A program made the translations under genes and the position numbers. DNA of 40,314 nt from a virus. Its lineage: Duplodnaviria; Heunggongvirae; Uroviricota; Caudoviricetes. Of this stretch, positions 1,641-39,597 are shown piece by piece. Each line of letters begins with the position of its first letter. The first letter of the stretch is position 1. The notes under the pieces are model-generated. The model was not told the origin of the DNA. It worked only from the letters and a program-made list of their open reading frames with translations, and made no database searches. The stretch lies in IMG/VR virus record IMGVR_UViG_2541047163_000016; one strand, written 5' to 3'.

Positions 1641-1686
1641 CGATTTGTTTAATTGATACAACAAATAGATTGAAAAGTCATCAACA

Positions 1687-5579: not shown

Positions 5580-5924
5580 ACTGTAAACAGGGCCGCGAAT
5601 GCCCTGCCATCGAACGGAGCGGCTGTTGCAGCGAATAAACTCGCCACTCCAAGAAATATTAATGGTGTCCCATTTGACGGAACGCAGGATATAAATATTA
5701 CATCGGGGATGACGCAGTCTGTGGCTGACTCACGTTATGTTCAAAGCATTCGAAGAGGTTCAAGGTCAACGATTGGAATGCAATATAATATTTTTGAGGT
5801 TCCTGACGGATGCGTACTTACAGGGCTTGATGTCGCTGGTGATGGTAATGCAACGGTAACCGCATATTATCGACCTGTTCAGTTTCTGATAGATGGTTCG
5901 TGGAAAACAGCTTCCAGCGCATAA
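5562..5924 (+). other. Promoterless alternative tail-fibre C-terminal cassette (S'v-like)
   Basis: In-frame from the stop at 5559-5561: GLRDTVNRAANALPS...ATPRNINGVPFDGTQDINITSGMTQSVADSRYVQ... parallels residues 178-240 of the expressed tail fibre and then diverges; ends ...YYRPVQFLIDGSWKTASSA. Confidence 0.6.
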
Positions 5925-6003
5925 AAGTGCAGTAGTTCAAAAAACAGATTATCTGAATAAATATATGATGATTTTGTCTTTTCAACAAAAACAAGGTGAA
6001 ATA

Positions 6004-6525
6004 ATGGAGCTTATTAACGTAAAACGATATTACCCGGAACACAAACCCTATGGTGAGGATGTTCAGTATTTCCAGAGTGAGGACGGAAGGGATTTTTATG
6101 AATCTATCCCGCTTTTCACAAAGAAATACAAACTCTGTATTTCGCCTGTAACGGGTATTATCTGCTCTGTTGCTGAAGATGTCTCTGCTTTATATCCGGC
6201 AGGTTTTACTGTTGTTGAAGTGGACGAACTGCCGGAAGGTGTGAATATTGACGGTAACTGGCAGTTTTCTGATGGCCTGATATCAAAGGTGCCGGTAAAC
6301 TGGAAGACGGTTGCTGAAAAGCGCCGCTCATCGCTGCTCCAGGAAGCCAACGAAACTGTGGATGACTGGAAAACGGAATTAAAACTGGACATGATTAGCG
6401 ATGAAAATAAATTACAGCTGACGCGCTGGATGGCGTATATCCGACAGCTTAAAGAAATGCACTTTAATGATATTGCCAGTGAGGGGCATTACCAGGCGAT
6501 TCCCTGGCCGGAAAAACCGGAATAA
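6004..6525 (+). CDS. Tail fibre assembly protein (U'-like), belonging to the silent cassette
   Basis: 173-aa product from the ATG at 6004 (AAGGTGA upstream); size, position after a fibre C-terminus and ...HYQAIPWPEKPE ending fit tail-fibre assembly (Tfa/U) proteins. Alternative start at 5965. Confidence 0.65.
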   Translation: MELINVKRYYPEHKPYGEDVQYFQSEDGRDFYESIPLFTKKYKLCISPVTGIICSVAEDVSALYPAGFTVVEVDELPEGVNIDGNWQFSDGLISKVPVNWKTVAEKRRSSLLQEANETVDDWKTELKLDMISDENKLQLTRWMAYIRQLKEMHFNDIASEGHYQAIPWPEKPE

Positions 6526-6530
6526 TTCAG

Positions 6531-6555
6531 AGGGTGCATTCAGCACCCTTTTCTG
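6531..6555. terminator. Bidirectional hairpin terminator between convergent tail fibre and U' genes
   Basis: AGGGTGC-attca-GCACCCT followed by TTTCTG on plus and preceded by an A-rich tract; sits between stop 6523-6525 (+) and stop 6560-6562 (-). Confidence 0.6.
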
Positions 6556-6559
6556 TGGT

Positions 6560-7471
6560 TTACACTGAACTTACCGTTCTCCAGGCATTATTAATATAAA
6601 TCTGAACCGGGCGATAATAGACCCCACCGATATTGTCCGCAGACCGGGAGCCGGTTTCCTGCACGTTAATTCCGGAAAGCATACAACCGGAAGGTGCGCT
6701 GTAATTCCATGACATTTCATTGCCTCCGGGTGAATGATAGCTCTGTGCTCCAAGCTGAACATTCTGTACATACCGGCCATCTGCGGTTGACTGCGTCATT
6801 CCTGACGTGATGTTGATATCCAGCGTTCCGTCAAAAGGAACACCATTAATATTTCTTGGGGTGGCGAGTCTGTTTGCTGCCACGGCGGTTCCACCCGATG
6901 GCAGGGCATCAGCAGCCTTATTTACCGTTTCCCGTAAACCAACGTTATCGATAAAAGCGCCTTTATCCGGAATGTCTGCGCCGTTCTGCTCCCTGCGCAG
7001 GTAACGGTTATCACCTTCGCTTTTGCTGTAAACATCCAGATTATTACGGGCGGTTCCCGCATTCTCCAGGTCGGCAAGGTTCTGATCCTTCGCCAGAGCA
7101 TTAACGTCACCGGGACCAAGACTGTTTTTTGTGGCAAGCGCCCCAAGACCAAGATAACCACGGGCAAGACGCTGGGCTTCCGCACCGGCATCAGCAATTT
7201 CTTTCAGGTTGTTTTTCCGGGAAAAGGCATTCGCAGCGATAATGGCTTTAATGGACAGCGTAAGCTGGTTTAACTGCGCCTTATCCGGCTGAATACTGGC
7301 TTCAGCCAGAATATTCAGCAGTTCGGCCTGGAGAATATTCAGCCAGTCCTGACCAATCCAGCTGATACCTTTTTGTCCGTCACCTTCGGTAAACCAGGTG
7401 GTGGTATTACTCTGCGCCGGTGCCAGCGCAGGCATATTCGCCACGCCGGAATTATTATCAACATGAAACAT
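6560..7471 (-). CDS. Tail fibre protein (S-like), currently expressed variant
   Basis: ATG at 7471 overlaps the upstream stop (TAATG) and is preceded by GAGGAG; C-terminal ~127 aa parallels the silent cassette; ends ...GGVYYRPVQIYINNAWRTVSSV. The ORF-track start at 7525 lies inside the upstream gene. Confidence 0.75.
   Translation of the reverse strand: MFHVDNNSGVANMPALAPAQSNTTTWFTEGDGQKGISWIGQDWLNILQAELLNILAEASIQPDKAQLNQLTLSIKAIIAANAFSRKNNLKEIADAGAEAQRLARGYLGLGALATKNSLGPGDVNALAKDQNLADLENAGTARNNLDVYSKSEGDNRYLRREQNGADIPDKGAFIDNVGLRETVNKAADALPSGGTAVAANRLATPRNINGVPFDGTLDINITSGMTQSTADGRYVQNVQLGAQSYHSPGGNEMSWNYSAPSGCMLSGINVQETGSRSADNIGGVYYRPVQIYINNAWRTVSSV
6929..6954. other. gix-like recombination site inside the tail fibre gene
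   Basis: Read on the minus strand: TTATCGATAACG-TT-GGTTTACGGGAA (10/12 and 11/12 matches to the Mu gix half-sites); encodes FIDNVGLRE at tail-fibre residues 173-181, exactly where homology with the silent cassette begins. Confidence 0.5.
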
Positions 7472-20898: not shown

Positions 20899-21044
20899 TC
20901 CGGCAGCATAAGCCGGGAATTTTCAGGGCGGGTTTTGCGGGATTTCAGGAAGTGCTTCCAGGGGAAAAATACAAAGGCGCTTCACGCAGATTTTAAAGCC
21001 CGTTAAATACAGGTTAGAAAATCACGACACGCGCCTGAAGGGGG

Positions 21045-21548: not shown

Positions 21549-21669
21549 ATTGCCTCCGCATAAAGGATGAATATAAAATAAACAGGCGGTCAGTGTACGC
21601 TTAACTGGTAAAGTCGGTGCCTGCCTCCGGGTGGATCATGTATGCGGGTTCAACCCCCGCCACTGACCG

Positions 21670-24583: not shown

Positions 24584-26238
24584 CCCCGATCAAATTCATG
24601 ATATGCCTCATCGTCATCACGATAACCGCCCTCCATGGCCCGCGACCGCTCCGGCAGCGCCTGGCAGGCTGATTCATCCAGGATAAAGCCCTCCATGTAT
24701 GACGCCCGGTTTGCCATACAGAGCGCCACGGCAAAATCACCATGGCGGCGGGCGTTCACAGCTGTTGCGTTCTGGTCCTTCGTACGCCCCTTGTCGATTT
24801 GCGGGATACCGTTCACCACCTTCACATGGCGCAAATCATCAAGCGTGGTCTGATGGCGGGCGACGAGGATATTCTGATCCTCAAACTCGGCCTTCAGTTT
24901 TGGCATCCACTCGCCGTACCACTTCGGCGATAACATCACGCAGTCGATGATGTCCGGGCCAAAGGCCAGCAGCGCGGCTTCGGCCAGATAGCCGCCGTTA
25001 CCGGTGGCGTCGAACGCCGCACCGACCAGCGCCGGAACGCGGGTCAGGATGTACATCATCACCTGCTCCTGCTGGGCATACGGCAGGTTGCGCAGCTCCA
25101 CGCGAAACACCTCGCGTTTTGCCAGGGATTCAGTGATTTCCAGCAGCACAAAGCAGGAGAGGTCACCGGTGCGGGCAAAGTCTTCCCCGAAGCTGAAGCG
25201 GGAACGGGGATTTAACGCCTCTAAAAGCGGTTTTAAATGTTCTTCACACCAGGTTAAAACCTCCGATTCACGCAGCCATGCGGCACGGCTGATGAAGTCG
25301 TCCGGGGCTTCAAACGTCAGAATCGGGATGTCGCGGATCATCGCCATTTCAATAAGCGCGTGAGGAATATAGGCACCGCCGGATTTTTTCGGGATACAGC
25401 CGTATTCCTCGTCGGCATCCTCACGGGTCGGGGCGTTTTTGTAGAGATCATCACGCCACTTCTGCTCGCTTTCCGGTGACCATTCGCGGCCGGTGACATA
25501 ACAGATACGACGGTACAGCCCGTCCGCAATGGCATCATCCAGGGTTATGCGGTGGACACTGTAATCCTTGCGTCCCTCGCGGGCTTCCTGAATGTACTGA
25601 TTAAACAGATTATCGACGCCGTTATGCGTGGAGATAATACGCACGCGCGCGCCCCACATGGTGAGCGCCATTGCCGCCTTGAGAAGCTCATCCAGTGACT
25701 CGTGGAACGCGGCTTCATCAATCACCACATCCCCCTGAAGGCCGCGCAGGTTTGACGGACGGGAAGACAGTGCCTGAATTTTGAATCCACTGTTCGGAAA
25801 GCGGATCATGTAGGTCAGAATTTCTTCTTTTTTATCCCGATCCCAGAAGGTCTGCTCATACACATCAGCATCGGCCAGCTGGTTAAAGGCACGGGAGAAC
25901 AGTGCGCAGGCAGAAATATATTCCAGCGCCATCTCCTGCTTTGACCCCACATAAAACACATTACGGCCACCACGACGCTTAGGCTTTGCGGCGGTAATGA
26001 CGTTACGCCCGGCTTCCGCCCAGGTAAGCCCGGTGCGGCGGGATTTTTCCGCGATGCAGACCTCACTTTCATCCTCAAACCAGCGGGCCTGATAATCCAG
26101 AAACACCGGCATATCACCGGGCAAATCAAGGCTGTCCGGCACATCCACGCCCAGCAGGGCTTTTTCACCGGCCAGATCAATTTTGCGGGTGGAGACGGTA
26201 TTCGTCAGTAAGGGGGAGAGTTCTTCGGCGTTATTCAT
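24574..26238 (-). CDS. Terminase large subunit (Mu gp28-like)
   Basis: 554-aa ORF; ATG overlaps the stop of the upstream small gene (ATGA); position between the small-terminase-like gene and portal. Confidence 0.8.
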   Translation of the reverse strand: MNNAEELSPLLTNTVSTRKIDLAGEKALLGVDVPDSLDLPGDMPVFLDYQARWFEDESEVCIAEKSRRTGLTWAEAGRNVITAAKPKRRGGRNVFYVGSKQEMALEYISACALFSRAFNQLADADVYEQTFWDRDKKEEILTYMIRFPNSGFKIQALSSRPSNLRGLQGDVVIDEAAFHESLDELLKAAMALTMWGARVRIISTHNGVDNLFNQYIQEAREGRKDYSVHRITLDDAIADGLYRRICYVTGREWSPESEQKWRDDLYKNAPTREDADEEYGCIPKKSGGAYIPHALIEMAMIRDIPILTFEAPDDFISRAAWLRESEVLTWCEEHLKPLLEALNPRSRFSFGEDFARTGDLSCFVLLEITESLAKREVFRVELRNLPYAQQEQVMMYILTRVPALVGAAFDATGNGGYLAEAALLAFGPDIIDCVMLSPKWYGEWMPKLKAEFEDQNILVARHQTTLDDLRHVKVVNGIPQIDKGRTKDQNATAVNARRHGDFAVALCMANRASYMEGFILDESACQALPERSRAMEGGYRDDDEAYHEFDRGCW

Positions 26239-26819
26239 CAGGCTTTACCCAACAGAATTCCCTTAATACGGGACTCAAGCTGTTCACTCATCCCGTCCAC
26301 GCCGCGCAGCTCGTCGGTAACCGCGTTTGCCATCTCTTCAGCAAATGCAGCCCGGATTTCTTTTTCACGTTTAATGCTGCGCTCGGCGGCACTTTCCGCA
26401 CGCTGTGCTGACAGGAGGATGTCCTTAATAAGACGCATATCCACGTCGCTGTCACTGTTCAGGGATTCGGTCGCGGCACGCAGACGGCGGTACATCAGGG
26501 CGCGGGACATCTCCAGAATCAGTGCCGTGGTTTCACCGGTCGGCTTGTCCCCCAGTTCGGCCATCATGGCTTTTGTCTGCTCGCGTAAATCACGCAGGTT
26601 ACGGGCAATCAGCTCATTACGGGAGGCTTCCCGGCTGATGGCCGCCGGTGAAAGCTGCTGCTCTTCCGGCAGGCCTGCCTCGCGGATCAGACGGTTGATT
26701 TCCTCGCGGATCTGGACCTGCGTCAGACGTTTTTCACGCAGCATTTCCAGCAGTGGCTTACGGATGCTGTCGGGGAGCAAATCCACCTTGCGCACGCGGC
26801 CACGCGTCGGCTTGTCCAT
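26238..26819 (-). CDS. Putative small terminase / DNA-binding protein (Mu gp27-like)
   Basis: 193-aa charged, helix-rich ORF immediately upstream of the large terminase gene. Confidence 0.55.
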   Translation of the reverse strand: MDKPTRGRVRKVDLLPDSIRKPLLEMLREKRLTQVQIREEINRLIREAGLPEEQQLSPAAISREASRNELIARNLRDLREQTKAMMAELGDKPTGETTALILEMSRALMYRRLRAATESLNSDSDVDMRLIKDILLSAQRAESAAERSIKREKEIRAAFAEEMANAVTDELRGVDGMSEQLESRIKGILLGKA

Positions 26820-26821: not shown

Positions 26822-27112
26822 CTACCCCCTTGCGCGTGGTTTCTTCACACCCGGAACGGTGGCGCGGCCTTCCGCCACATCCTGACCCCGGCCGGTCAGT
26901 TCAGCGATGAAATAACCATTAACGAGCGTGCGCTTACGCACCAGCCCCTGCTCGGCAAGCCAGGCAATATGAGTATGAACGGTGTCGCGGGACACGCGGT
27001 GACCGTAATCATCCAGACAGTCCTGGAGCACGGATTCACCCAGTTCGCCGTTGTAATCCGCCAGCGACCGCAGAATGACAAGACGCTGATCTTCAGTAAT
27101 GAAATCACTCAT
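26822..27112 (-). CDS. Hypothetical protein, possible winged-helix DNA-binding
   Basis: 96-aa ORF with verified ATG, between the lysis genes and the terminase genes. Confidence 0.45.
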   Translation of the reverse strand: MSDFITEDQRLVILRSLADYNGELGESVLQDCLDDYGHRVSRDTVHTHIAWLAEQGLVRKRTLVNGYFIAELTGRGQDVAEGRATVPGVKKPRARG

Positions 27113-27417
27113 TGTGTTTTTTTCCTTACCGCCTGCTCCAGCAGCAGTTCGTTCTGATAGGAGACAGAGCGGAGCGTGGCGTTCGTGGTTTTCAGTTCAC
27201 CCCGCAGGGTCACGATTTCCACATTCAGACGGTTGACCTCGGCTTCTGTCGGCAGTGACGACAGGCGGGTTTCCACCTTCTCAACGCGGTCGGAGAGTTT
27301 TTCAAAGGCCTCGCGGGGGACAAACGTTTTGCGCATCAGCGCCATGAATATCCCGCCAGCGGTTGCCGTCGCCGAAAGGATCGGCACAACATAATCTTTA
27401 ACGATGCTGACCCACAT
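27109..27417 (-). CDS. Membrane protein with N-terminal transmembrane segment and coiled-coil tail (possible lysis accessory protein)
   Basis: 102-aa ORF; hydrophobic stretch VVPILSATATAGGIFMALM followed by charged helical sequence; downstream of the spanins. Confidence 0.45.
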   Translation of the reverse strand: MWVSIVKDYVVPILSATATAGGIFMALMRKTFVPREAFEKLSDRVEKVETRLSSLPTEAEVNRLNVEIVTLRGELKTTNATLRSVSYQNELLLEQAVRKKTQ

Positions 27418-27625
27418 GACGGGCCTCCATGATGTTCTGGCAGTTCACACAACGGATGGCATCCGGCACAGCAACAAGACGTGCGGCGGGGATCTCTCCG
27501 CCACAGTCCGCGCAGACACGTCTGCCCGGAGCATCCATTGCCCGGCGCTTACGTGTCAGCCGGTTACAAAGGGCGCGTTCTGATCCCCGCTCCATCACAG
27601 CCTGAGCACGATCTGAATCATCCAT
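27398..27625 (-). CDS. TraR/DksA-family C4 zinc-finger protein
   Basis: ATG at 27625 preceded by AAGGA; C-terminus CADCGGEIP...CVNCQ is the C4 finger typical of phage TraR/DksA-like proteins. Confidence 0.6.
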   Translation of the reverse strand: MDDSDRAQAVMERGSERALCNRLTRKRRAMDAPGRRVCADCGGEIPAARLVAVPDAIRCVNCQNIMEARHVGQHR

Positions 27626-27635
27626 ACCTTTTTCC

Positions 27636-28007
27636 TTACTTCGTCTTTCCTGCCGGAACAGCAGGCGTTCCGGCCATATCAGTAAATTCATGTTGTCGCC
27701 GCGCCTCCAGACGACGAATACTGGCCTTGTCCACGTTGCAGTTCTTGATCACCGCCAGCAGTTGCAGGTTGTAAGTGACCGATGCCCCAAACGTGAACGG
27801 CTCCGGCGCAGGAGGGACCAGGCAGTCAGCCAGCCATTCAGCGGGGATCGGCACCGGCTTCACAGGCACGTATTTCACAGACGGCCCGGCGCACCCGATC
27901 AGCCACATCATCAGGAACAGGGGCAGAGGCCGCAGGCACTGCCTCCAGCGACCGGCGGACAACGCTCTGCTGCCCCTCGCTGTGCTGAATGTTCTGTTGT
28001 TTTTCAT
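27636..28007 (-). CDS. Outer-membrane spanin (o-spanin) lipoprotein, overlapping the i-spanin gene in another frame
   Basis: ATG at 28007 with GAGG upstream; lipobox-like LIGC followed by a proline-rich mature region (CAGPSVKYVPVKPVPIPAEW...). Confidence 0.5.
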   Translation of the reverse strand: MKNNRTFSTARGSRALSAGRWRQCLRPLPLFLMMWLIGCAGPSVKYVPVKPVPIPAEWLADCLVPPAPEPFTFGASVTYNLQLLAVIKNCNVDKASIRRLEARRQHEFTDMAGTPAVPAGKTK

Positions 28008-28236
28008 TCGTGGCCGCCTCACTGATTTGTGAAATGAGTTGCAGGGTGTGCTGCTGATTTGCCAGCACCTGACGCGCCTCATCCCGCTCACGCACAAGCA
28101 CCTGATTATTGTCTTCAAGGCGCTGCGTCTTCTGGTGCATTCCCCATATAGCGGCAACCAGTACAGCGATAATCCCCAGCGCCGCCATGCACGCCCCGGC
28201 AATCAGGGCCGGTAAGGCATTATTCACCGCAGCCAC
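27838..28236 (-). CDS. Inner-membrane spanin (i-spanin); start uncertain (GTG 28236 or 28227, or ATG 28188)
   Basis: N-terminal hydrophobic segment ALPALIAGACMAALGIIAVLVAAIW followed by a Gln/Glu/Arg-rich coiled-coil region; immediately downstream of the endolysin. Confidence 0.5.
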   Translation of the reverse strand: MAAVNNALPALIAGACMAALGIIAVLVAAIWGMHQKTQRLEDNNQVLVRERDEARQVLANQQHTLQLISQISEAATNEKQQNIQHSEGQQSVVRRSLEAVPAASAPVPDDVADRVRRAVCEIRACEAGADPR

Positions 28237-28300
28237 AGGACACCCCGTAACAGCAGTACCGCACACAGCAGCGCTATCATGAGCGGTCGCCAGAAGCGGT

Positions 28301-28801
28301 TCAGACTTTCGGCAAGTCGTAGCGACATAACCATTCATCCGCCGAACGGCGGGCCTCAAGGCCGGGGAGTTTCACCCCCTTTGAATAAATCCAGCGGATA
28401 TACTGCTTACAGGACGCGGGCATCTGCCCGGCATTGATCAGGCGCAGAAGCGTGGAGTTGCGAAAGTTCGTTTCACCGGCCCAGAAGATCCACGAAGCCA
28501 GCGCCACCGTCTGACCACGGGTAAGCGGCACCTGAACACGCCGATCAATGGCCGCAAAGGCCCATTTCATGTCCTTTTCCAGTAGTTCCAGGCATTCTTC
28601 ATCTGTCAGGGTCATACCCGGTTTCACATCCGGGCCGGTATGGCCGTAACAGATGGTGGGTGTACCGGTGGGATCGATATACGTGGAGTTTTCTTTCCCT
28701 TCCCAGTAACCGGTGTAATGCGTGGCAATCGTGAACGTCCCGGCACCGGCCAGAACAAGGGCAATCAGCTTTTTACGCAGTGGTGCGGGGAGTTTTGGCA
28801 T
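28301..28801 (-). CDS. Endolysin, lysozyme (GH24-like) with N-terminal signal-anchor-release-like segment
   Basis: YIDPTGTPTICYGHTG...GMTLTDEECLELLEKDM...VPLTRGQTVAL resembles P22/T4-type lysozymes (recalled); residues 12-27 LIALVLAGAGTFTIAT form a weakly hydrophobic Ala/Gly-rich segment. Confidence 0.85.
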   Translation of the reverse strand: MPKLPAPLRKKLIALVLAGAGTFTIATHYTGYWEGKENSTYIDPTGTPTICYGHTGPDVKPGMTLTDEECLELLEKDMKWAFAAIDRRVQVPLTRGQTVALASWIFWAGETNFRNSTLLRLINAGQMPASCKQYIRWIYSKGVKLPGLEARRSADEWLCRYDLPKV

Positions 28802-28802
28802 T

Positions 28803-28840
28803 GTTACGCTGTCTCATGATGTTCTCTGAGTCAGCGTAAC
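28803..28840. promoter_or_regulatory. Perfect 9-bp inverted repeat GTTACGCTG-N20-CAGCGTAAC at the 5' end of the lysozyme gene
   Basis: Arms at 28803-28811 and 28832-28840, within the 71-bp gap between the mor stop and the lysozyme start, ending 1 nt from the lysozyme ATG. Confidence 0.4.
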
Positions 28841-28872
28841 GGTGAAGGAGAGGCGGCAGGCTTTGCGGAATA

Positions 28873-29298
28873 TCAGAAAAGTGGCGGTTGCGTTCTTACC
28901 AGATGCAGACGGCGCTGTTCGCGTATGACGGTATAAATCTGGGTTTCTGACATCCGGTAATGGCGGCGAAGGGATTCAATTTTCTCGCCCCGGTCCCAGC
29001 GCGAAAATATCTCATTGTTTCGCAGCTCGGCAAAGAGAGATTCCCCGACCGGCAGGTAATAACCCCGTCCGCCCATATAGGCGGCCTGAGCCGCAGCCAC
29101 CTTGCGTGCCAGTTTACCGGCCAGTACCGGCTCAATCCCCTGACGCTGAAGTTCTGCGCCGGTGACTTCAACCAGTTCTGACAGGGTCCGCGGCCAGTTC
29201 TTTTTGAGAACATCATCAGGGATGTCATCAAGGCGGTCGATAAGGGCGTGCAGTTGCTCACTGTCACCACCAAACATGCTCATCTGAGTTTCTGCCAT
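28873..29298 (-). CDS. mor: Mor/C-family transcriptional activator
   Basis: ATG preceded by GGAGG; C-terminal region ...LPVGESLFAELRNNEIFSRWDRGEKIESLRRHYRMSETQIYTVIREQRR parallels the recalled Mu Mor C-terminal helix-turn-helix region. Confidence 0.75.
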   Translation of the reverse strand: MAETQMSMFGGDSEQLHALIDRLDDIPDDVLKKNWPRTLSELVEVTGAELQRQGIEPVLAGKLARKVAAAQAAYMGGRGYYLPVGESLFAELRNNEIFSRWDRGEKIESLRRHYRMSETQIYTVIREQRRLHLVRTQPPLF

Positions 29299-29367
29299 AT
29301 CAGCCTCCGGTTCTCGCGTTCCCGGTAAGTTTAAAATAAAAATCCCGCGTTGTGGCGGGATTTGGAG

Positions 29368-29877
29368 TTAACGGGGAAGTGATTTTTCATACTGCCTGCA
29401 AACGGCGTCATACCCCATCAGCGTGCGTTCGGGCATTCCCATCGCGGCCAGCATTTTGCGGCGGTGCCATCGCTTGAGACGCTCCAGCACATCTGAGGCC
29501 AGGGCGGGGTGTTGCTCCAGCCACTGCCAGTTTGCCACACCTTCGCCGCCGTTCTGCGCGGCCGTCTGCGATTTCACCCAGCGGTTAAGGGCGGTTTCCG
29601 CACCATCGGTGATAAAGCCCTGCCGGTGCATCACCTTCCAGATGGCGCGAATTTTGGCGGTCACCGTACCCGGTTTTAAGGCCCGGTTAACCGGGTTCTG
29701 ACGCACTTTAAAACCGCGTTTTTTGAAAACATCCAGCACGCGGGATAACTCATCCGGTGACATATCCCGGCAGCTGGTTTTGCCGGTAGCTGCCAGCAGC
29801 GCGGATGTATAAGTCTCATCATCCAGGGCAAGCTCGCGCTTTGCCACATGAATGGCGGATATCAGTTTTCCTCTCAT
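29368..29877 (-). CDS. gemA: GemA-like protein (Mu gp16 family)
   Basis: 169-aa ORF immediately upstream of mor, as gemA is in Mu; AAGGT before the ATG. Assignment mainly by synteny and size. Confidence 0.55.
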   Translation of the reverse strand: MRGKLISAIHVAKRELALDDETYTSALLAATGKTSCRDMSPDELSRVLDVFKKRGFKVRQNPVNRALKPGTVTAKIRAIWKVMHRQGFITDGAETALNRWVKSQTAAQNGGEGVANWQWLEQHPALASDVLERLKRWHRRKMLAAMGMPERTLMGYDAVCRQYEKSLPR

Positions 29878-30170
29878 ACCGTATTTACCTTTTTACGGAC
29901 ATGGAAAGCCTTTTCTGCCTCATCCCACCGGGCATGGTGTGTTGGCGGAATAATCATTATGTGCCAGCCATCTCTGCTTGTTATTCGGCAGAAAAATTCA
30001 CCGTTATATAACACAATGGCCTGCTGAATGAGCGCATCAGCCGCCCGTTCAACCGGATGTCTTTTATCAAAAAAGCAGATGATTTTTCGACATAACCACC
30101 GGGTAATAACAAATGCGCCGAAAAAGGATGTGATATATAAGCACCAGAACAACAGAGAACTATTGTCCAT
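29874..30170 (-). CDS. Hypothetical early protein with N-terminal hydrophobic segment
   Basis: 98-aa ORF with verified ATG; LLFWCLYITSFFGAFVITRWL suggests a membrane anchor. Confidence 0.45.
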   Translation of the reverse strand: MDNSSLLFWCLYITSFFGAFVITRWLCRKIICFFDKRHPVERAADALIQQAIVLYNGEFFCRITSRDGWHIMIIPPTHHARWDEAEKAFHVRKKVNTV

Positions 30171-31066: not shown

Positions 31067-31374
31067 TCCGGTAAAGCTGAAATATGGCACCAGTGCGTCA
31101 CCTGTCCGTCCTCATCTTCAAGGCAGGCTCCGGTTTCTTCATCAATAAAAAAGCCTTCATACCCCATATGGCCGATGCGCAGTTCCTGTTGGTCACCATA
31201 CTGAACAATCAGCACGACAGCCTCCATATCAGGCGGGAAAGCATCATTCAGTGAATGCCAGGGATAACCGCGCAAATCCCCGAAATAAACACCGGTCAGC
31301 GTTCCGCCACAGACCGGCATTCCGACGGCACACACAAGGGGTTCATCTGATTCAACAAATAATGTCGTTATCAT
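31063..31374 (-). CDS. Hypothetical early protein
   Basis: 103-aa acidic ORF with verified ATG. Confidence 0.5.
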   Translation of the reverse strand: MITTLFVESDEPLVCAVGMPVCGGTLTGVYFGDLRGYPWHSLNDAFPPDMEAVVLIVQYGDQQELRIGHMGYEGFFIDEETGACLEDEDGQVTHWCHISALPE

Positions 31375-31922
31375 GGCATTAATTCCCGTAATACAACATC
31401 TTCGGCAGTCCGACGACGGTGATAAATAAAACTCACCGTGCCCTCGGATAATTCAAATTTCTCGCCGATTTCCCTAAAGGTAAGACGCCGTGGTGATTCA
31501 GCATCCCGTAATTCACGAATAAGACGAACATCATCGTCAGGTATGCGGGTGAAGGGCAGCAACTCTCCGTATTTTTTCATGCTTACGCCAATATATCGCG
31601 CCCGATTGTGGACAGAATCCCGGTCTCGCCCCAGATATTCTCCTATTTGCTTACCGGTCATTGTTCTGGCATTTTTTCGGATAAATTTATCTTCATCAGG
31701 TTTAAATCTGAGGCGTTTGCATTTGAGCAACTCCGGGTAAGTACCGCGTAATAAAACAATCCGGTTATGTACACCCCAGAAACTTCTTTTTATCCTGACA
31801 GCAATATCCTTAACCGGGGTGGATGGATAAAGCGCAATCAGCAGCGCATCTTCTTCAGGTGTCCATGCGCGAACATGAGCGGGTGCACGGCCTTTTCTCC
31901 CCATGGGTTGTAATATCATCAT
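31371..31922 (-). CDS. Putative DNA-binding protein with two Myb/SANT-like repeats and a C-terminal helix-turn-helix
   Basis: Repeat 1 WTPEEDALLIALY...FWGVHNR; repeat 2 FKPDEDKFIRKNAR...DSVHNRARY; C-terminus LTFREIGEKFELSEGTVSFIYHRR resembles sigma-70 region 4/LuxR-type HTH. Confidence 0.45.
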   Translation of the reverse strand: MMILQPMGRKGRAPAHVRAWTPEEDALLIALYPSTPVKDIAVRIKRSFWGVHNRIVLLRGTYPELLKCKRLRFKPDEDKFIRKNARTMTGKQIGEYLGRDRDSVHNRARYIGVSMKKYGELLPFTRIPDDDVRLIRELRDAESPRRLTFREIGEKFELSEGTVSFIYHRRRTAEDVVLRELMP

Positions 31923-31925: not shown

Positions 31926-32441
31926 TCACCCCCTGACTCGCTTTTCAGCAGCATAAAACTCATCAGACAGAATTTCGGTCATTTTCTGATTTGCGGGTTT
32001 TACGCCGCACTCAAGGTAAATCACATCGTCAACGCAGAACCACTTCACAGGGCCAAACATGATTGCCGAGAAATCAATACCCAGCCAGAACAACAGTGCA
32101 TCGGTTCTGGCATACGTGACGGGCGAATATTCACGCCACAGACTGTTAAGTTCGTCAGAGGCAACGCGCAGGGCTTTGGGAATACGTGATGTGCGCGGTG
32201 TGCAGCTCCAGCCATTCGACGCAGTCGGTTTTCGCCATAAGTCGCGATGAAAAGGATATTTGTCATCCATAAAGCGCAGCCCTTTAAAACAAAAGCCACT
32301 GATACCGGATACAAATACCGACCGGCACGCAACATTCAGCACGGCCTCAAGGCGTTTTGCCTCATCCTTAACTTTCTGGCAGTCCTGCTGATATTTTTGC
32401 CACGCGGCCAGCGCGGAAGGGTTTGATGTTTTAAAGAACAT
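31926..32441 (-). CDS. Hypothetical early protein
   Basis: 171-aa ORF; stop/start overlaps with neighbours. Confidence 0.5.
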   Translation of the reverse strand: MFFKTSNPSALAAWQKYQQDCQKVKDEAKRLEAVLNVACRSVFVSGISGFCFKGLRFMDDKYPFHRDLWRKPTASNGWSCTPRTSRIPKALRVASDELNSLWREYSPVTYARTDALLFWLGIDFSAIMFGPVKWFCVDDVIYLECGVKPANQKMTEILSDEFYAAEKRVRG

Positions 32442-32974
32442 TACGCCACCTCCGCAGATATCCCGGCAGGCGCGGCCGTCCGGTCAACAATCAGGTAACG
32501 CAGAACGCGCGAGGTGATATTCCAGCCGCTTAAACCGCAGATAATGACACCCAGGCGTATGTCGATATACGCCATCACAAACTGGGGCACGCCTTCTTTC
32601 ATGGCCTGCTCATCAACTTCAGCCACCACATAAACGGTTTCACAGGTCAGAACGCCCTGAGCAAATTCCCACGCCATTGACGGAATATCATGCCCCTCAA
32701 TCCACGGCAGGGATTTTCTGAAGCTGCACCACTGAACATCATCAGCCGCACCTTCCTGGCTGCATTTGCGACGAACCGGCTGCACCGGGCGGGGACGCGG
32801 AATATCATAAAAACCGTTACATTCCGTCAGCACCCCGGCATCGACCGCATCACGCAGAAAATAAACCATCGAGGATGGCGGCATATTCATTTTTTCAGCC
32901 AGAATGCCGCAGGTCAGACGCCCGTAAATACTCAGCCAGTTTTTAACCCCTTCAAGCACTTTTGCACCAATCAT
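32441..32974 (-). CDS. Hypothetical early protein
   Basis: 177-aa ORF with verified ATG. Confidence 0.5.
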   Translation of the reverse strand: MIGAKVLEGVKNWLSIYGRLTCGILAEKMNMPPSSMVYFLRDAVDAGVLTECNGFYDIPRPRPVQPVRRKCSQEGAADDVQWCSFRKSLPWIEGHDIPSMAWEFAQGVLTCETVYVVAEVDEQAMKEGVPQFVMAYIDIRLGVIICGLSGWNITSRVLRYLIVDRTAAPAGISAEVA

Positions 32975-33617: not shown

Positions 33618-34148
33618 TTATTTATTCAGTCCGGCGTCCTGTTCAAAAGGCTCGACATAAAAACTTTCAGCGCCTTTATTCACCTTAATACCGGCAATGC
33701 CTTTCACTGCATCCGGCTCCGCTAGGACCGCTTCCTTGTTCACTTCCTCTTTCGTGCGGATGAATCGCTCAAGCCCCATACGGCGCAGCATTTCAATCAC
33801 ACCTTCCACATCACGGCTGACGCTGCATGATGGATTTCCCAGCCGCCATGACACTGTTCCGGTGGTCAGATTGGCTGTTTTGGTTTTGCCGCCGTTCGTC
33901 AGCTCATCGCGGTTGGTTTTGCACCAGTCCTGAATCCCCTTAAAAAGCACTTTGATTTCTTTTTTAAGGTTTTCAATCTGCGGCGTATAACGGGCGGTGA
34001 TTTCTGCCACTTCATCATTCATCGCCGTTTCCAGCCGTAGCGCCTCTCGCTGAATATCGCCCAGGGTACGGATATCGCGGCTGACTTCTTCGCGGGTCTG
34101 CGGTGCAGCCTCGGCTGCGGCCTTTAATTTTGTAACACGTTTAGCCAT
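33618..34148 (-). CDS. gam: Gam-like host-nuclease inhibitor (DNA end-binding, Ku-like)
   Basis: ...LGDIQREALRLETAMNDEVAEIT...CKTNRDELTNGGKTKTANLTTGTVSWR...LERFIRTKEEVNKEAVLAEP... closely parallels the recalled Mu Gam sequence; AAGGA before the ATG. Confidence 0.9.
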   Translation of the reverse strand: MAKRVTKLKAAAEAAPQTREEVSRDIRTLGDIQREALRLETAMNDEVAEITARYTPQIENLKKEIKVLFKGIQDWCKTNRDELTNGGKTKTANLTTGTVSWRLGNPSCSVSRDVEGVIEMLRRMGLERFIRTKEEVNKEAVLAEPDAVKGIAGIKVNKGAESFYVEPFEQDAGLNK

Positions 34149-35276: not shown

Positions 35277-35504
35277 TTAGCTGACTTGTTTCGCACCAAC
35301 AGAACGGCATATTCCGCTGTAAACGTCTGTCGCACCTTCGCGATCAAGTCCGGCAGATATCACCATTCGTGTGCGGTCATTAAATTCAAAAAGTAAATCG
35401 CCACATTCTTTATTTTCGGCCAGTGAAATCACCTTCACGTTATCGAAATTAACCAGGTAAAAGCGTCCGTAAATATCAGGAATATTAAATACCGCCATAA
35501 TCAC
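35277..35504 (-). CDS. Small early protein immediately downstream of B (position of Mu kil)
   Basis: 75-aa ORF; size and position match Mu kil, but no sequence-based support. Confidence 0.45.
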   Translation of the reverse strand: MIMAVFNIPDIYGRFYLVNFDNVKVISLAENKECGDLLFEFNDRTRMVISAGLDREGATDVYSGICRSVGAKQVS

Positions 35505-36433
35505 ACCTGTGAGAGTAATTCAGGGTTGGTATAAACCTCTTTAAAGGCCGCATTAATATGTTTTTCTGTCAGCGCCGCGCCTTCACCGCTGGCGGTGAGC
35601 CACGCCTGGTTAAGCGTATGTGTCAGAACGCGTAACGCTCCCGGCTTTTCAGCGATAGCCTGCATGACGGCCAGCTCGGCCTCACCACTGATCCCCCACG
35701 CCCTGGCAATGGCCAGCACATCCGCCTTTTTGGCCTTGCGAAGTTGTTTTGTACGGGCAAGACGGCTGAACAGGCGCGATAAATCATCAAAGGCGCGGCG
35801 TCCACCTTTAAACAATCCGCGCGGGTTACCAATAAGCACCATCCCGATCCCCGTGGCGTCCTGAATTGCCCGGAGTTGCTCCAGACCGTCAATACCCAGA
35901 TGATCCGCCTCATCCACAATCACCAGTCCACGCGTTCCCATCAGGCGACGGCGGATGGCGCGGGATAATGCCCCTTTGTTCGCGCGGGTGTAATCAATCC
36001 CCAGCGCATCGGCCAGCTCCAGCAGACACTCCGTGACGCTGGAGTGCGCGGGTGACAGGGTGATCATCCAGGTGTTTGGTTGCTCCTGGCAGTAATTACG
36101 GGCAGTGGCCGTTTTACCCACACCCGGTACGCCCACAATAACGTTAATACAGCCCATCAGACGAACCGCCTGAAACAGTGCGCGCAGCTCCTGGACTGTC
36201 TGCGTTTCCACAAACTGCGGCGGTTCCGGCAGTGCGCTTTGTTTATTCCAGTTTTCATACCAGGAACGCAGGGAAGCAGCCACAGCGGCGTTATCGCCTT
36301 TATATTTCCCCTTGCGGAAAGCCGATAATGTGCCGTCGGAAATTCCCGCCTCTCTGGCGATGGCATACTGCGTCAGTACGCCGCCATCAATAAGTTCATC
36401 AATGGTCTTGATTACATCGTTAATATCAGTCAT
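35501..36433 (-). CDS. B: Transposition ATPase / target DNA activator B (MuB-like)
   Basis: ...EPPQFVETQTV...VGVPGVGKTATARNY...TWMITLSPAHSSVTECLLELA...LVIVDEADHLG...AEKPGALRVLTHTL closely parallels the recalled MuB sequence including the Walker A motif; ATG preceded by GAGAGG. Confidence 0.9.
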   Translation of the reverse strand: MTDINDVIKTIDELIDGGVLTQYAIAREAGISDGTLSAFRKGKYKGDNAAVAASLRSWYENWNKQSALPEPPQFVETQTVQELRALFQAVRLMGCINVIVGVPGVGKTATARNYCQEQPNTWMITLSPAHSSVTECLLELADALGIDYTRANKGALSRAIRRRLMGTRGLVIVDEADHLGIDGLEQLRAIQDATGIGMVLIGNPRGLFKGGRRAFDDLSRLFSRLARTKQLRKAKKADVLAIARAWGISGEAELAVMQAIAEKPGALRVLTHTLNQAWLTASGEGAALTEKHINAAFKEVYTNPELLSQV

Positions 36434-36504: not shown

Positions 36505-38595
36505 TCAGGCCAGCGGGTCATTTTCTTTTAATTTCGCTTCCAGCAACTGCAATCCCCGCTGGAAATTACGCTCGTATTCTTCATCAGGTTCATCGTCAGC
36601 GACCGGTTGCTGAACGGTCACCGTATTACCCACAGGGCGGTATATGTTTTCCAGCCAGGGCTCCTGCGGCTTGTGCTCCAGCACGTTGACAACCTCATCC
36701 TCGGCATCACGGATTTTTTCCTCTGCGCGTTTACGCATGCCTTTAAGGCGTTGCTGCTGTTTGTAGTATTCCGCGCTGACCGGGAAGGCTTCGCGTTTAT
36801 TGCCGTCCCATACCGCCTCGCAAATCACGCTGCCATCCAGGCGACGTACGGTAATTCGTTCGGCATCATGAATGTCATAGCTGATAAGCACCTTACGGCC
36901 ATGCTCGTCACGCAGCTCGGGCGCGTAGTAAATATTATTCAGCCAGCGTATTTCACAGCGTCTTACAGGGCGTTCCACCATCGGCCGGAACATATCCCGC
37001 AGCTCAACATCGGACAGCCATTCAATTTCCGTGTCCTCTTCCGCCAGGCGTTTTTTTCTGAACTCCGCCGGGCTGTAATGCTTGCCGTTCGGCTTCACCG
37101 GTAATTCATCGTGCGGCCGGTTGTTGTACCACTCAACACCGTCACGAATGGCATCAATCAGTTCAGACCAGGACGGTAAATCACGCATCGCTGACTGCTG
37201 CCGGGCGTTCAGCCGTTTGCCCTGTTGCAGGGCAGTAAATGCCGAGCGTAAATCGCGGTTGGTTTTGCGTAACGTCTCGCGATCTGCACCTTTCCCGAAA
37301 TAGGTGCGGTATTTACGGGCTATGCGCATCGGTAATGTGCGGTTAAGCCGTTCGATAATGCCTCGTCCCTGCGGATTACCGGCAATCCCGGTCGGGTGAT
37401 TAATCCCCAGTCGCGGCAGTATCCCCACAACCTCCTTATCCAGGATGTCGGCGGTTTCCCCGGAGCCGTTATCCGAGTAATACAGAAACGGTTTGCCGTG
37501 ATGGCGAATGCCGTGCTGTATGGCACCGGCTACGGCGAAAACATTTTCAGCCAGGTCAAGGCTCCAGCCCACCACAAAGCGCGTGCCACCGTCGATAACA
37601 AAGGTCACTTCCGGTGCAAATGGCCGACCGTGAACCGGGTGTGCGCATTTCAGCTTCATGCCGTGACCGTCACCAATCCAGACATAATTCACCGGCATTC
37701 TGGACCAGTCGCGGCGCGTGAATCCCTCAAGCTGGCGGTATTCACTGCCGGTCACCCGGCCTTTTTGTTTCACCACTTCCGGCAGTTTCTTCATTGCGCG
37801 GCGAATGGTGTCATAAGACGGCATGATATCGAGCATATAAGGCTCATCAGCGTGCCGGTGCTGCCATTCAGCGACAAAATCCTCGTAAGCCTCGGTCATT
37901 GGTCGGCCGTTTGACTGGCGATACTGCGCCAGAAATTCGGGCAGCCAGTTAATATCTTCGGCTTTTATTTCCTGGCGCTTACCCGGTGCCAGTAAAAGCA
38001 GGCGTTCAGCGGCGTTCTGCGCCTTGTTAAAGGCCGCAATCCAGCGTTTCAGCGTGATTTCACTTAACGCGCGGCTGTTTCCCTTTTTGGCGTTCGCCGT
38101 CTCAACCATTGCCACAATGCGCTCGTCCAGCTGCGAACGTGCCAGGTTGTCAACGATAAACCGGATAGCCTTCGCACAGCTGAAACCAGGTTGTTGCGCG
38201 ACTTTCAGAACTTCGCTGACGATCGCGATTCGTGCATCAGCCACCTGGCGCTGGTTTTCAGTCAGGGCATTAAGGCGTTCGACCATCAGTTGTGGTGATC
38301 CGCGATATGCCTCCACCGCATCAACCACGGCAGGCGAGCGTCTGGCCTTTGTCACCACTGGAGCCGGTGATTCATCGACTTTTTGAGTCATCAGTTGCAG
38401 GGCGTAGCGTTCACGTAATGCCTGCTGCGTCACTTCAGGTAAACAGTCGATGCTGTATTCAGTTGCTTTAGAGCCTGAGCGACGACGGGAACAACAGCTT
38501 TTCCCTTGTACGTAACGTTGTAATGCCTGGCGAATACCTTTTGTTGTAGCAGGCATTCCGGGCGCGCCAATCAGTTCTTTTGCAATGACATACAT
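36505..38595 (-). CDS. A: DDE transposase A (MuA-like)
   Basis: 696-aa ORF directly after ner with GAGAAAGG before the ATG; central region with WIGDGHG... and DNG motifs resembles the MuA catalytic core. Confidence 0.9.
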   Translation of the reverse strand: MYVIAKELIGAPGMPATTKGIRQALQRYVQGKSCCSRRRSGSKATEYSIDCLPEVTQQALRERYALQLMTQKVDESPAPVVTKARRSPAVVDAVEAYRGSPQLMVERLNALTENQRQVADARIAIVSEVLKVAQQPGFSCAKAIRFIVDNLARSQLDERIVAMVETANAKKGNSRALSEITLKRWIAAFNKAQNAAERLLLLAPGKRQEIKAEDINWLPEFLAQYRQSNGRPMTEAYEDFVAEWQHRHADEPYMLDIMPSYDTIRRAMKKLPEVVKQKGRVTGSEYRQLEGFTRRDWSRMPVNYVWIGDGHGMKLKCAHPVHGRPFAPEVTFVIDGGTRFVVGWSLDLAENVFAVAGAIQHGIRHHGKPFLYYSDNGSGETADILDKEVVGILPRLGINHPTGIAGNPQGRGIIERLNRTLPMRIARKYRTYFGKGADRETLRKTNRDLRSAFTALQQGKRLNARQQSAMRDLPSWSELIDAIRDGVEWYNNRPHDELPVKPNGKHYSPAEFRKKRLAEEDTEIEWLSDVELRDMFRPMVERPVRRCEIRWLNNIYYAPELRDEHGRKVLISYDIHDAERITVRRLDGSVICEAVWDGNKREAFPVSAEYYKQQQRLKGMRKRAEEKIRDAEDEVVNVLEHKPQEPWLENIYRPVGNTVTVQQPVADDEPDEEYERNFQRGLQLLEAKLKENDPLA

Positions 38596-38596: not shown

Positions 38597-38845
38597 TCAT
38601 GACGCCTTTCTCATATAGCTCTTAACCTGGTATCGACTGGGCCAGATTTCTTCAGGCGATACCCCAAGAGCATCAGCAATTATTTGCTGATACGGTCGGC
38701 AAGGAGTACGTAATACGCTTTTCAGCGAATCCCTGCTGTAACCAGCCTTTAAAGATAAAGAGCGCAGTGATAAGCCAGCCATGTGTAAGCGCGCCTTGAT
38801 GATTTCAGGCGGCCAATCGTGATCTGAAACTTCTCTTCTACTCAT
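38597..38845 (-). CDS. ner: Ner-like DNA-binding protein
   Basis: ...LSLRSLSLKAGYSRDSLKSVL...QQIIADALGVSPEEIWPSRYQ parallels the recalled Mu Ner/Nlp family sequence; first gene of the early operon, divergent from the repressor. Confidence 0.85.
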   Translation of the reverse strand: MSRREVSDHDWPPEIIKARLHMAGLSLRSLSLKAGYSRDSLKSVLRTPCRPYQQIIADALGVSPEEIWPSRYQVKSYMRKAS

Positions 38846-39012
38846 ACTTCCTCTATTCTAAAAAGTTACCCGCGCGGATATTCGTGCGGATATCTGTACG
38901 GGTAAATAATAGAACAAACAAAAGAACCAAATCAAGGTATTTTGTTCTTTTTATTCTTTGCGGTGTTTTTGTTATTAATATCAATAAGATAAATACAAAG
39001 GAACCTGAGAGC
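38846..39012. promoter_or_regulatory. Divergent early control region (operators and promoters for repressor and ner-A-B)
   Basis: 167-bp gap between divergent starts; direct repeats GCGGATAT at 38874-38881 and 38886-38893; 7-bp inverted repeat TTACCCG (38866-38872) / CGGGTAA (38899-38905); AT-rich tract 38940-38990. Confidence 0.5.
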
Positions 39013-39597
39013 ATGAACATGAAAAACAGTTCTTTTCTCGACGAAGGAAAAGAACCAGTGATCGAACGGATTTTTCGTCTTGCAGAGCGTTACAAATCGA
39101 GAAGTGAGGCGGCTAGAGCATGGGGAATAAACGTTCAGACATTGCAGAACTACTACAAAAGGAGAAACAATCAGCCGCCACCACAACCAAGAAAGCACCA
39201 TCTCCAGAACATTGCAGAAAGAGAACATGTATCTATGGAGTGGCTAGTCAATGGTTATGGTGATGAGCCAAGCATGAAAAAAGAACCAATTGAACAAACA
39301 AAAAGAACAAAAAAACAAAGAATTGATGATAGTGATTCCATCATCATGAGGGCGTGGGACTCGCTAACTTCATCTGAACAAGAGATTTTGTCCAACTTAT
39401 TGATCAGAAAAGGGGCCGAACTACTAACCGTTTTGCTTGATACAGATATTCAAAAACTGCACTCATTGAGCGGAGTCAAAAGAGCACTAGCATTGAGTCT
39501 ACAAGAGTTACCCGATGATACTGTAAGAGAGATTTATGAAGAATGTGAAGCTAAGGTTAATCATTTAAATGTAACCCAGAAAAAGGCTGGTGCGTAA
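39013..39597 (+). CDS. Repressor (Mu c functional analogue) with N-terminal helix-turn-helix
   Basis: ATG at 39013 with AAAGGA 9 nt upstream (track start 38884 is GTG inside the operator region); N-terminal ...RSEAARAWGINVQTLQNYYKRR looks like an HTH; divergent from ner, at the left end as Mu c is. Confidence 0.7.
   Translation: MNMKNSSFLDEGKEPVIERIFRLAERYKSRSEAARAWGINVQTLQNYYKRRNNQPPPQPRKHHLQNIAEREHVSMEWLVNGYGDEPSMKKEPIEQTKRTKKQRIDDSDSIIMRAWDSLTSSEQEILSNLLIRKGAELLTVLLDTDIQKLHSLSGVKRALALSLQELPDDTVREIYEECEAKVNHLNVTQKKAGA

Follow-up and report, generated by a model that had tools for sequence, protein, structure and literature searches.

The stretch analysed here, called the window below, is the whole 40,314-nucleotide IMG/VR record IMGVR_UViG_2541047163_000016. 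It contains a complete Mu-like transposable prophage, carried on the minus strand and lying entirely within these 40.3 kb, and we were concerned with the part of it in which gemA, closing the early operon, precedes a gene of the Mor/C family of transcriptional activators and, after it, a lysis cassette (Table 1). The spacing is tight, with 69 nt between gemA and the activator gene and, as the initial annotation of this DNA had stated, 71 nt (28802-28872) between the activator gene and the start of the lysozyme gene. Every feature listed in that annotation was found at the coordinates it gave, on the minus strand, with evidence from Pfam, PHROGs, the lipobox and transmembrane segments.

The product of the activator gene matched the Pfam model Mor (PF08765) with 109.3 bits (cut-off 24.9; E 1.2e-31) over profile positions 2-107 of 107, and an alignment of 145 family sequences with an hhalign probability of 100%. 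By BLASTP it was 39% identical to Mu C (E 6e-35, 105 bits) and 27% identical to Mu Mor (E 4e-14, 51 bits). A PDB search likewise retrieved MuC (9l0x, 9vw8) at E 2e-26 and Mor (1rr7) at E 3.8e-9, and in PHROGs the protein belongs to phrog_532, 'late transcriptional activator' (E 1.3e-44). Because it is closer to Mu C than to Mor, and because its gene occupies the C position, directly upstream of a Plys-type promoter, we conclude from these comparisons that the single activator is of the C (late) type and not of the Mor type. The gene had initially been called mor, a name that we do not retain; a 'Mor' annotation on such genes is better read as 'late activator'.

The GGRxxYxP strand of the family is intact in the protein (G76, G77, R78, Y81 and P83, invariant or nearly so across the alignments), and in the helix-turn-helix (HTH) S117, Q120 and Y122 align with MuC S110, Q113 and Y115. 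MuC binds upstream of -35 as a tetramer, and the residues through which it contacts DNA have been listed (bioRxiv 10.1101/2025.05.02.651988). Among them (MuC numbering), R72, Y75, P77, S110, Q113 and Y115 are preserved in the activator, and R98, Q116 and R120 are replaced, changes that would fit the altered activator box described below. The protein termini carry QMSMF (residues 5-9) and QPPLF (137-141), which are also present in the family consensus and resemble beta-clamp-binding motifs, namely the N-terminal Qx[D/E][L/M]F and the C-terminal QPDLF required for MuC function (PMC12867686). Each is one position off, with S in place of D/E in the N-terminal motif and P in place of D in the C-terminal one. 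The same work describes dependence of Mor/C proteins on the clamp.

A second family member was sought with phmmer, using Mu Mor, Mu C and the window protein as queries, and with both the 145-sequence family profile and a 3-sequence profile, all run with --max on every six-frame segment of ≥25 aa in the window (936 in total). The 145 members had been drawn from a search of 1.84 billion representative proteins, which gave 531 matches at E ≤0.001. There was one match (E 1.9e-48), the next best having E 1.4. The hhalign comparison with the family alignment took in 23 phage-strand open reading frames (ORFs), namely ner, the small early ORFs past B as far as gemA, four ORFs of the cassette and the one in the com region, and gave no further match, with a best probability of 3.6%. 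Since the prophage lies entirely inside the window, the whole element was covered, and the view that it has a single Mor/C-family gene was borne out by sensitive profile searches of the window ORFs.

The 3.6% value came from an early 183-aa protein (31371-31922, minus strand), conserved in related E. coli prophages, with a C-terminal HTH and a weak Sigma70_r4 match. It aligned with the family at the HTH only and belongs to phrog_323 ('transcriptional regulator, D5-like', E 6e-58), and we rejected it as a member of the Mor/C family. Regulation of the activator promoter is a candidate role for it.

Homologues of the small middle-operon genes gp18-20 of Mu, gp19 and gp20 included, were absent anywhere in the window, and the prophage does not have the Mu-type pair of Mor/C paralogues flanking a middle operon. 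By gene content, what is absent relative to Mu is mor together with gp18-20, and not C, which had been taken for the missing gene. On this gene content, the three-stage cascade of Mu (Mor, C, late genes) cannot operate in the window prophage.

The gap between the activator and lysozyme genes holds a homologue of Mu Plys. When this region was aligned with those of Mu and of five intermediate IMG/VR lineages (L numbers denote loci of the related set described further on), anchoring on the -10 hexamer, an 11-nt box began exactly 31 nt before a TAnnCT hexamer in every sequence; Mu PI and Pmom have the same register. A CTGA-like element lies ~7 nt upstream of the box in the aligned promoters. The box itself changes with the lineage, being ACCATAATCCC in Mu and L061, ACCGGAATCCC or ACCGGAATCAC in L035 and L037, ACCGCAATCCT or ACCGCAAATCC in L024 and L026, and TCCGCAAAGCC in the window.

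Comparison with 81%-identical E. coli relatives showed conservation of the box and the -10 but not of a 14-nt spacer. A footprint mask made of only the positions conserved in that comparison had its best non-self match in the window at a site before the head protease gene, with 23/33 positions; 1 of 200 shuffles scored as high. This PI homologue shares the box-to-(-10) register with the window Plys. A position weight matrix (PWM) derived from an alignment of ten promoters, among them both window sites, gave the PI site 27.1 bits and the Plys site 26.7, the next score anywhere being 11.1. Four loci from three further lineages (L024, L026 and L027/L031) had exactly two sites each, one past the activator gene and the other ~8 kb downstream before the protease gene, both with that lineage's own version of the box. 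A C-type box in exact register, varying with the activator lineage, provides good comparative evidence that the single activator would act directly on the late promoters Plys and PI.

Table 1. Features of the switch and lysis region, followed by other landmarks of the prophage (positions in the window)
Feature	Position	Strand	Remarks
gemA (gp16 family), last early-operon gene	29368-29877	-	Pfam GemA E 3.2e-30; RefSeq 'gp16 family protein'
Intrinsic-terminator-like hairpin	29340-29363	-	AAATCCCGC-CACAAC-GCGGGATTT + T-run; directly 3' of gemA
Candidate activator promoter (putative)	29328-29356	-	-35-like GCCACA 29356-29351; 17-nt spacer; -10-like TAAACT 29333-29328
Mor/C-family activator, 141 aa	28873-29298	-	Sole family member; C (late activator) type
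Plys homologue (lysis/head operon)	28833-28879	-	CTGA; box TCCGCAAAGCC 28869-28859; 20-nt spacer; -10 TACGCT 28838-28833
SAR-type endolysin (Mu gp22 homologue)	28301-28801	-	Pfam Phage_lysozyme E 6e-37
i-spanin (Mu gp23 homologue)	27838-28266	-	phrog_214 Rz-like spanin E 1.6e-32; alternative start ATG 28338
o-spanin, overlapped architecture	27636-28007	-	Pfam LysC E 5e-16; phrog_3001 E 8e-42
TraR/DksA-type C4 zinc-finger protein	27398-27625	-	Pfam zf-dskA_traR E 7.7e-12; phrog_54 E 9e-20
DUF2730 protein, 102 aa (Mu gp25 releasin homologue)	27109-27417	-	Pfam DUF2730 E 7e-20, residues 6-97
gp26-like winged-helix protein	26822-27112	-	63% identity to Mu gp26, E 3e-42; same operon
gp27 (small terminase), end mark of lysis block	26238-26819	-	Pfam Phage_Mu_Gp27 E 2e-33
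PI homologue, before head protease gene	20905-20951	-	Box CCCGCAAAACC 20941-20931; -10 TATGCT 20910-20905
c repressor	38884-39597	+	Prophage end gene
ner	38597-38845	-	
Transposase A	36505-38595	-	
B	35501-36433	-	
gam	33618-34148	-	
gp11-like gene	32441-32974	-	
mom	681-1418	-	Opposite prophage end from c repressor

The first gene after Plys encodes an endolysin 39% identical to Mu gp22 (E 9e-35), whose translation contains the catalytic pattern E34-X8-D43-X5-T49. Its N-terminal segment, LIALVLAGAGTFTIA, is rich in Gly, Ala and Thr, is weakly hydrophobic (Kyte-Doolittle value 1.68 vs 2.70 for the spanin transmembrane segment) and has R9-K10-K11 just ahead of it. Membrane tethering and release of the signal-anchor-release (SAR) type are predicted for this enzyme. 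In Mu, lysines right before the SAR segment make endolysin release dependent on gp25 (PMC9239132).

The i-spanin has an N-terminal transmembrane segment and is 27% identical to Mu gp23; the o-spanin has the lipobox LIGC and is 49% identical to the C-terminal part of the Mu o-spanin. As initially described, the o-spanin gene overlaps its partner and extends beyond it: it begins inside the i-spanin gene, in the other frame, and ends 202 nt past the i-spanin stop (at 27636), as in Mu. A two-component spanin of overlapped architecture is defined by an i-spanin with an N-terminal transmembrane segment and a periplasmic coiled-coil region, and by a lipoprotein o-spanin whose gene begins within that of the i-spanin and outruns it. 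The o-spanin start is probably ATG 28007 or TTG 27962. RefSeq gives an 80-aa o-spanin (LysC) from GTG 27878, which removes the signal peptide and the LIGC lipobox; since this version lacks the lipobox, its start is probably too far downstream.

The DUF2730 protein is 34% identical to Mu gp25 (BLASTP, E 5e-18) and has a transmembrane segment, VVPILSATATAGGIFMA, at residues 10-26, followed by a coiled-coil region; a PDB search with it gave nothing meaningful. Releasins of the Mu gp25 kind (DUF2730 type I) are characterized by an N-terminal transmembrane segment and a gene lying within five genes downstream of a SAR endolysin, and a DUF2730 gene was found within five genes of the endolysin in 34/34 Mu-like phages examined (PMC9239132). 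Here it is the fourth gene after the endolysin, and its product is a candidate releasin, predicted to serve in the release and activation of the endolysin. Of the two roles initially proposed for this small membrane/coiled-coil protein, that of release factor is thus favored, and that of holin is kept only among the rival explanations below. More generally, DUF2730 genes beside SAR endolysins can be read as releasin candidates.

No holin family was matched in the cassette (Pfam, PHROGs), in line with the initial annotation, and between 27109 and 28801 there was no small membrane-protein ORF other than those of the endolysin, spanins and releasin. Absence by profile search falls short of proof, holins being too diverse. 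Mu itself is without a holin, gp25 releasing its SAR endolysin (Chamblee et al. 2022, PMC9239132), so the lack of a canonical holin is an already known property of this cassette type. Just upstream of gemA, an early 98-aa ORF (29874-30170, minus strand) has a hydrophobic N-terminal segment (Kyte-Doolittle value 2.12); it belongs to phrog_17269, of unknown function, and is not homologous to Mu gp19 or gp20.

On its other side, the activator gene is separated from gemA by an intrinsic-terminator-like hairpin with a 9-bp stem, a 6-nt loop and the tail TTATTTTAAA, found by a terminator scan and also present in the computed fold. The -35-like GCCACA of the candidate activator promoter sits in the hairpin loop. 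In every lineage examined, a TAnnnT hexamer (TAAACT, TATATT, TATAGT, TATACT or TATAAT, depending on the lineage) follows the T-run, ~30-55 nt before the activator ATG, and T-run and hexamer are retained even where the activator-proximal hairpin has decayed or where a reverse-strand gene intervenes after gemA. The likeliest route to activator expression would be a weak promoter of its own that overlaps the terminator. The timing of this promoter could be set by an early protein, by replication and clamp loading, or by slow accumulation.

The stem of the hairpin is conserved to an unexpected degree. Its TCCCGC/GCGGGA core is identical in 34 of 81 sequences (the 80 related loci plus the window), the activators there being 45-99% identical to that of the window. 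The dyad TCCCGC-N6-GCGGGA is confined to the gemA-activator interval; its 6-nt loops are variable and its flanks unrelated, and no covarying alternative stem was seen among the loci. Even with activators only 45-55% identical the stem is invariant (loci L010-L062, L077 and the window), which is unusual for a structure that needs merely to fold as RNA. Because the stem stays identical at such activator divergence and in unrelated flanking DNA, its invariance suggests that it may be recognised at the DNA level by some conserved factor of the phage or the host (e.g., the early phrog_323 regulator) or may be coupled to replication; it would then not be acting as an RNA hairpin alone. It is conceivable, albeit on balance improbable, that the invariant dyad overlapping the activator promoter is an undescribed switch that does Mor's step in this large Mu-like clade. 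The conserved terminator/promoter element before the activator is the sole part of the region with some research value, and how the single activator gene is switched on would be worth an experiment.

Activator autoregulation through this element was rejected as unsupported. The hairpin left arm, AAATCCCGC, is identical to the 9 nt with which the PI site opens, a clue outweighed by the lack of a late box in register upstream and by a dyad that is invariant while the late box varies by lineage; moreover, the hexamer in the Pm-like position lacks A-11 in one lineage and T-7 in another. AAATCCCGC is over-represented (6 observed vs 0.55 expected), partly from coding sequence and another terminator. 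A geometry like that of Mu Pm, which we take to be a dyad centred near -43, was also rejected, the hairpin centre being just ~53 nt from the activator ATG.

The gemA-activator junction is, in addition, a hot spot for inserted genes in either orientation, often encoding secreted proteins of one family with the motif KDPASGFW.C.G..LHM.VD. Inserts were seen at L005 1667-2008 (E. coli M1), L022, L024, L026, L028, L031, L035, L037, L044 and L061, and the window prophage has none. In L005 (strain M1), L022 and L035 the hairpin is doubled and flanks the insert on each side. In insert-bearing lineages, the hairpin beside gemA is intact and the activator-side copy has decayed.

To place the arrangement among its relatives, we used 80 IMG/VR loci retrieved by a scan with an alignment of ten C-like proteins, their activators being 39-99% identical to that of the window. 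A single Mor/C match within 10 kb either side was found at 76 loci; three had two matches 1.4 kb apart, which is the Mu arrangement, and at one a second copy was present as a fragment. Clustering at 90% identity gave 15 groups, of which 12 were purely single-activator. At L061 and L062 the activator clusters with Mu C at ≥70% identity, yet each has one Mor/C gene. GemA lies upstream at 79 loci and DUF2730 downstream at 69, and gp26, gp27 and TerL are also found downstream of the activator. A zinc-finger ORF of the TraR/DksA type starts ≤700 nt upstream of DUF2730 in 56 of those 69. Such a gene also stands right before the DUF2730 gene in the phages Pmp9 and HS6. As far as these loci represent the group, the single-activator layout is the usual one among Mu relatives and the two-activator cascade of Mu is the exception.

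The element itself is of a known kind. A 3.1-kb test stretch was 100% identical to several E. coli O157:H7 chromosomes and was present in 231 of 5426 complete E. coli genomes, in ≤4 places per genome, and also in two Shiga toxin (Stx) phages, where it is labelled 'inserted Mu-like phage'. Its match in FRIK804 (419,065-422,165, 100% identity) falls within prophage Phi804-3 (409,092-448,271). Phi804-3 is reported to be transposition-capable and 96.5% identical to Sp18 of strain Sakai (PMC7430833), a published value for these two prophages and not for the window prophage against Sp18; Sp18 has been described as apparently intact (PMC2669165). Mitomycin reportedly does not induce Sp18. Elements of the Sp18/Phi804-3 type, which have already been sequenced and annotated, are the same element type as the window prophage. 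The insertion site is different, the window prophage lying between lambda-type J and lom.

Taken together, these data make it most probable that the region is where a functional Mu-like prophage, of the Sp18/Phi804-3 type found in E. coli O157, switches from early to late expression and carries its lysis block, with a two-stage cascade and holin-less lysis. Early transcription would end at the hairpin terminator just past gemA. The C-like activator, by homology with MuC, would bind the box just upstream of the -35 position at promoters that have a -10 and no -35, recruit sigma-70 RNA polymerase and, by way of the motifs at its termini, probably make use of the beta sliding clamp. Plys would drive the lysis, terminase and head genes, with PI placed before the head protease gene, and control would pass from early genes to activator to late genes with no Mor-dependent middle stage. 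The SAR endolysin would be exported through Sec and stay anchored in the inner membrane, its release and activation being promoted by the DUF2730 releasin homologue, and the overlapped i/o-spanin pair would then disrupt the outer membrane. Homology, synteny, promoter register and family-wide distribution are the basis of this reading, all activities being inferred from them.

Several observations weigh against it. The 80 loci were collected with a C-like query, which over-samples C-like lineages. The activator gene lies behind a terminator, its putative promoter agrees with the consensus at 7/12 positions and falls below a sigma-70 consensus scan, and a late-type activator box in register was not found upstream of the gene. 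Equivalents of Mu PP and Pmom were not found by pattern and PWM scans of the window, the com/mom region being without a box; transcription of the tail and mom genes may reach them by read-through from PI, or these genes may have promoters too divergent for detection. In the cassette, the zinc-finger protein corresponds to Mu gp24 in position alone, apart from a weak match over four cysteines, and the RKK before the SAR segment is the only sign that the endolysin would depend on a releasin.

The weakness of the putative promoter is also an argument for supposing that the activator gene has none, and is expressed solely by early-promoter transcription that in part gets past the gemA terminator. 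The activator ATG is just ~40 nt past the hairpin and T-run, and a lysogen would be endangered if its late activator had a constitutive promoter. We nevertheless consider such an exclusive dependence on read-through rather doubtful, because several lineages separate gemA from the activator by a reverse-strand gene and an intact terminator, and because those same lineages retain the T-run and -10-like hexamer before the activator, also in cases where the hairpin at that place has decayed. The single Mor/C protein could instead be a Mor-like middle regulator, with a non-homologous protein as the true late activator. Other proteins that may bind DNA or RNA polymerase are indeed encoded (the phrog_323 protein, the winged-helix gp26 and the TraR/DksA zinc finger), and sites for the activator at PP and Pmom are missing. 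This is very unlikely, however, given that the protein resembles C far more than Mor and that the lys and protease promoters carry the Mu C-type box in exact register, varying with the activator lineage; furthermore, gp26 and the zinc finger are encoded downstream of Plys and are hence unable to start it.

As for lysis, holin diversity defeats exclusion through profile searches, and the DUF2730 protein, with its one transmembrane segment and coiled coil, or another small membrane protein such as that of the 98-aa ORF, with its strongly hydrophobic N terminus, could be an unrecognised holin. There is little likelihood of this: the homologous Mu gp25 has been designated a releasin for SAR endolysins in a holin-less phage, the 98-aa ORF is an early gene while confirmed holins are late genes (PMC9239132), and export of a SAR endolysin requires no hole-forming holin. 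Finally, the absence of mor and gp18-20 relative to Mu would also be seen in a defective derivative that had lost mor and the middle operon by deletion, and certain relatives are clearly degraded (e.g., AST46, with truncated head genes). That the arrangement reflects decay is nonetheless extremely improbable. Identical copies occur at different chromosomal sites and inside Stx phages, in ≤4 places per genome; the Phi804-3/Sp18 type is described as intact and transposition-capable (PMC2669165, PMC7430833); the same arrangement recurs in Pmp9, an isolated phage, and in 76 of 80 related contigs (a set falling into 15 clusters at 90% identity); and the gemA-activator and activator-lys junctions are conserved, functional-looking elements and not deletion scars. 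The two-stage switch with a C-type activator thus remains the preferred reading.

Beyond the lysis block, the gene order continues with gp26-like, gp27, terminase, portal, head, tail, a gin invertase with an invertible segment, com and mom. Next to the prophage are lom and, on the other side, the C-terminal part of a lambda-type J gene; its termini lie near ~551 and ~39859 (TGTATAGCGCGG... and ...AAATGATTCA), with repeated TTTGATACC motifs inside both ends. The 5 nt beside each end (AGAAA vs CCTGG) form no direct repeat.

Within the host-range region (2800-7525), a 679-aa protein (2800-4839) has a sialate O-acetylesterase (SASA) domain and DUF6645, and a gin-type invertase is encoded at 4939-5499. 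Inverted repeats of 182 nt (5562-5743 and 6765-6946, 78% complementary) enclose a ~1-kb segment that carries a tail-fibre assembly gene on the opposite strand. A com-like zinc-ribbon ORF (1380-1760, minus strand) lies ahead of mom, and the DNA upstream of com/mom is GATC-rich with short palindromes. An Rfam search of the window gave zero matches, and ARAGORN found no tRNA across the whole window. In the related prophage L006 (E. coli FORC_069), RefSeq annotates a 'tRNA-OTHER' at 28089-28168, on the opposite strand between F-like and G-like head genes, which corresponds to ~21549-21669 of the window.

The lysis region of Mu provides the closest comparison. After C, Mu has Plys, the gp22 SAR endolysin, the gp23 i-spanin, the overlapping o-spanin, gp24, the gp25 releasin, gp26 and gp27 (AF083977), and the window cassette has equal gene order and count, colinear from gp22 to gp27. 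Both lack a holin, have basic residues before the SAR segment and a 202-nt spanin overhang, and are preceded by a C-dependent-type promoter in the same register. They differ in that the gp24 position holds a clear TraR/DksA zinc finger in the window, whereas Mu gp24 scores below that Pfam model; in that the window promoter abuts the activator stop codon, whereas Mu has a terminator after C; and in the activator box, TCCGCAAAGCC in the window and ACCATAATCCC in Mu. Given this colinearity, and the published holin-less lysis of Mu (PMC9239132), the cassette is not the unusual one that it had been thought to be.

The regulatory circuits agree in the upstream gemA, the terminator hairpin that ends the early operon, an activator of the same family and of the C type, with terminal clamp-binding-like motifs, and late promoters with a -10 and an upstream box and without a -35. 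In Mu, Mor acts at Pm and C then acts at Plys, PI, PP and Pmom. The window has two stages to Mu's three, being without Mor, gp18-20 and a Mor/C box upstream of the activator gene, and two late promoters were detected in it as opposed to four in Mu. The suggestion that late control is wired unlike that of Mu therefore stands as far as the three-stage cascade is concerned, but the arrangement is an ordinary one among Mu relatives.

The same gene order in another characterised Mu-like phage, which was to speak against any peculiarity of this one, is found in the isolated Pasteurella phage Pmp9, in addition to 76 of the 80 IMG/VR loci. In Pmp9, GemA and the lone activator precede an amidase, after which come two small proteins, a DksA zinc finger, DUF2730, a winged-helix protein and the small terminase; the endolysin of this phage is the amidase, unlike the SAR endolysin of the window. 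Shewanella MuM16-1, Pseudoalteromonas HS6, Burkholderia KS10 and most of the IMG/VR relatives are likewise single-activator phages, with late genes after the activator and with the DksA-type zinc finger, DUF2730, winged-helix protein and small terminase arranged alike. In Shewanella phage MuM16-1 the activator gene overlaps the end of gemA, and in Pseudoalteromonas phage HS6 it lies two small genes downstream of gemA, with an annotated holin present. In Burkholderia phage KS10, a gene annotated as Mor stands after a gp16-like gene and before a protease gene, and the parts of its description available to us list no second Mor/C-type gene (PMC2628397). In other single-activator phages, some have gemA overlapping the activator with no terminator between, and some have an extra secreted-protein gene there.

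Irrespective of such variation, most Mu relatives would appear to place their late genes under a single C-type activator directly ahead of a cassette that lacks a holin and is made up of SAR endolysin, spanins, zinc finger and releasin. The arrangement noted is genuine but commonplace, and it corrects the view of this locus as an oddity, the textbook model Mu being the unusual one. The late switch has some practical interest as well, since the prophage is frequent in Shiga-toxin-producing E. coli and inserts into Stx phages.

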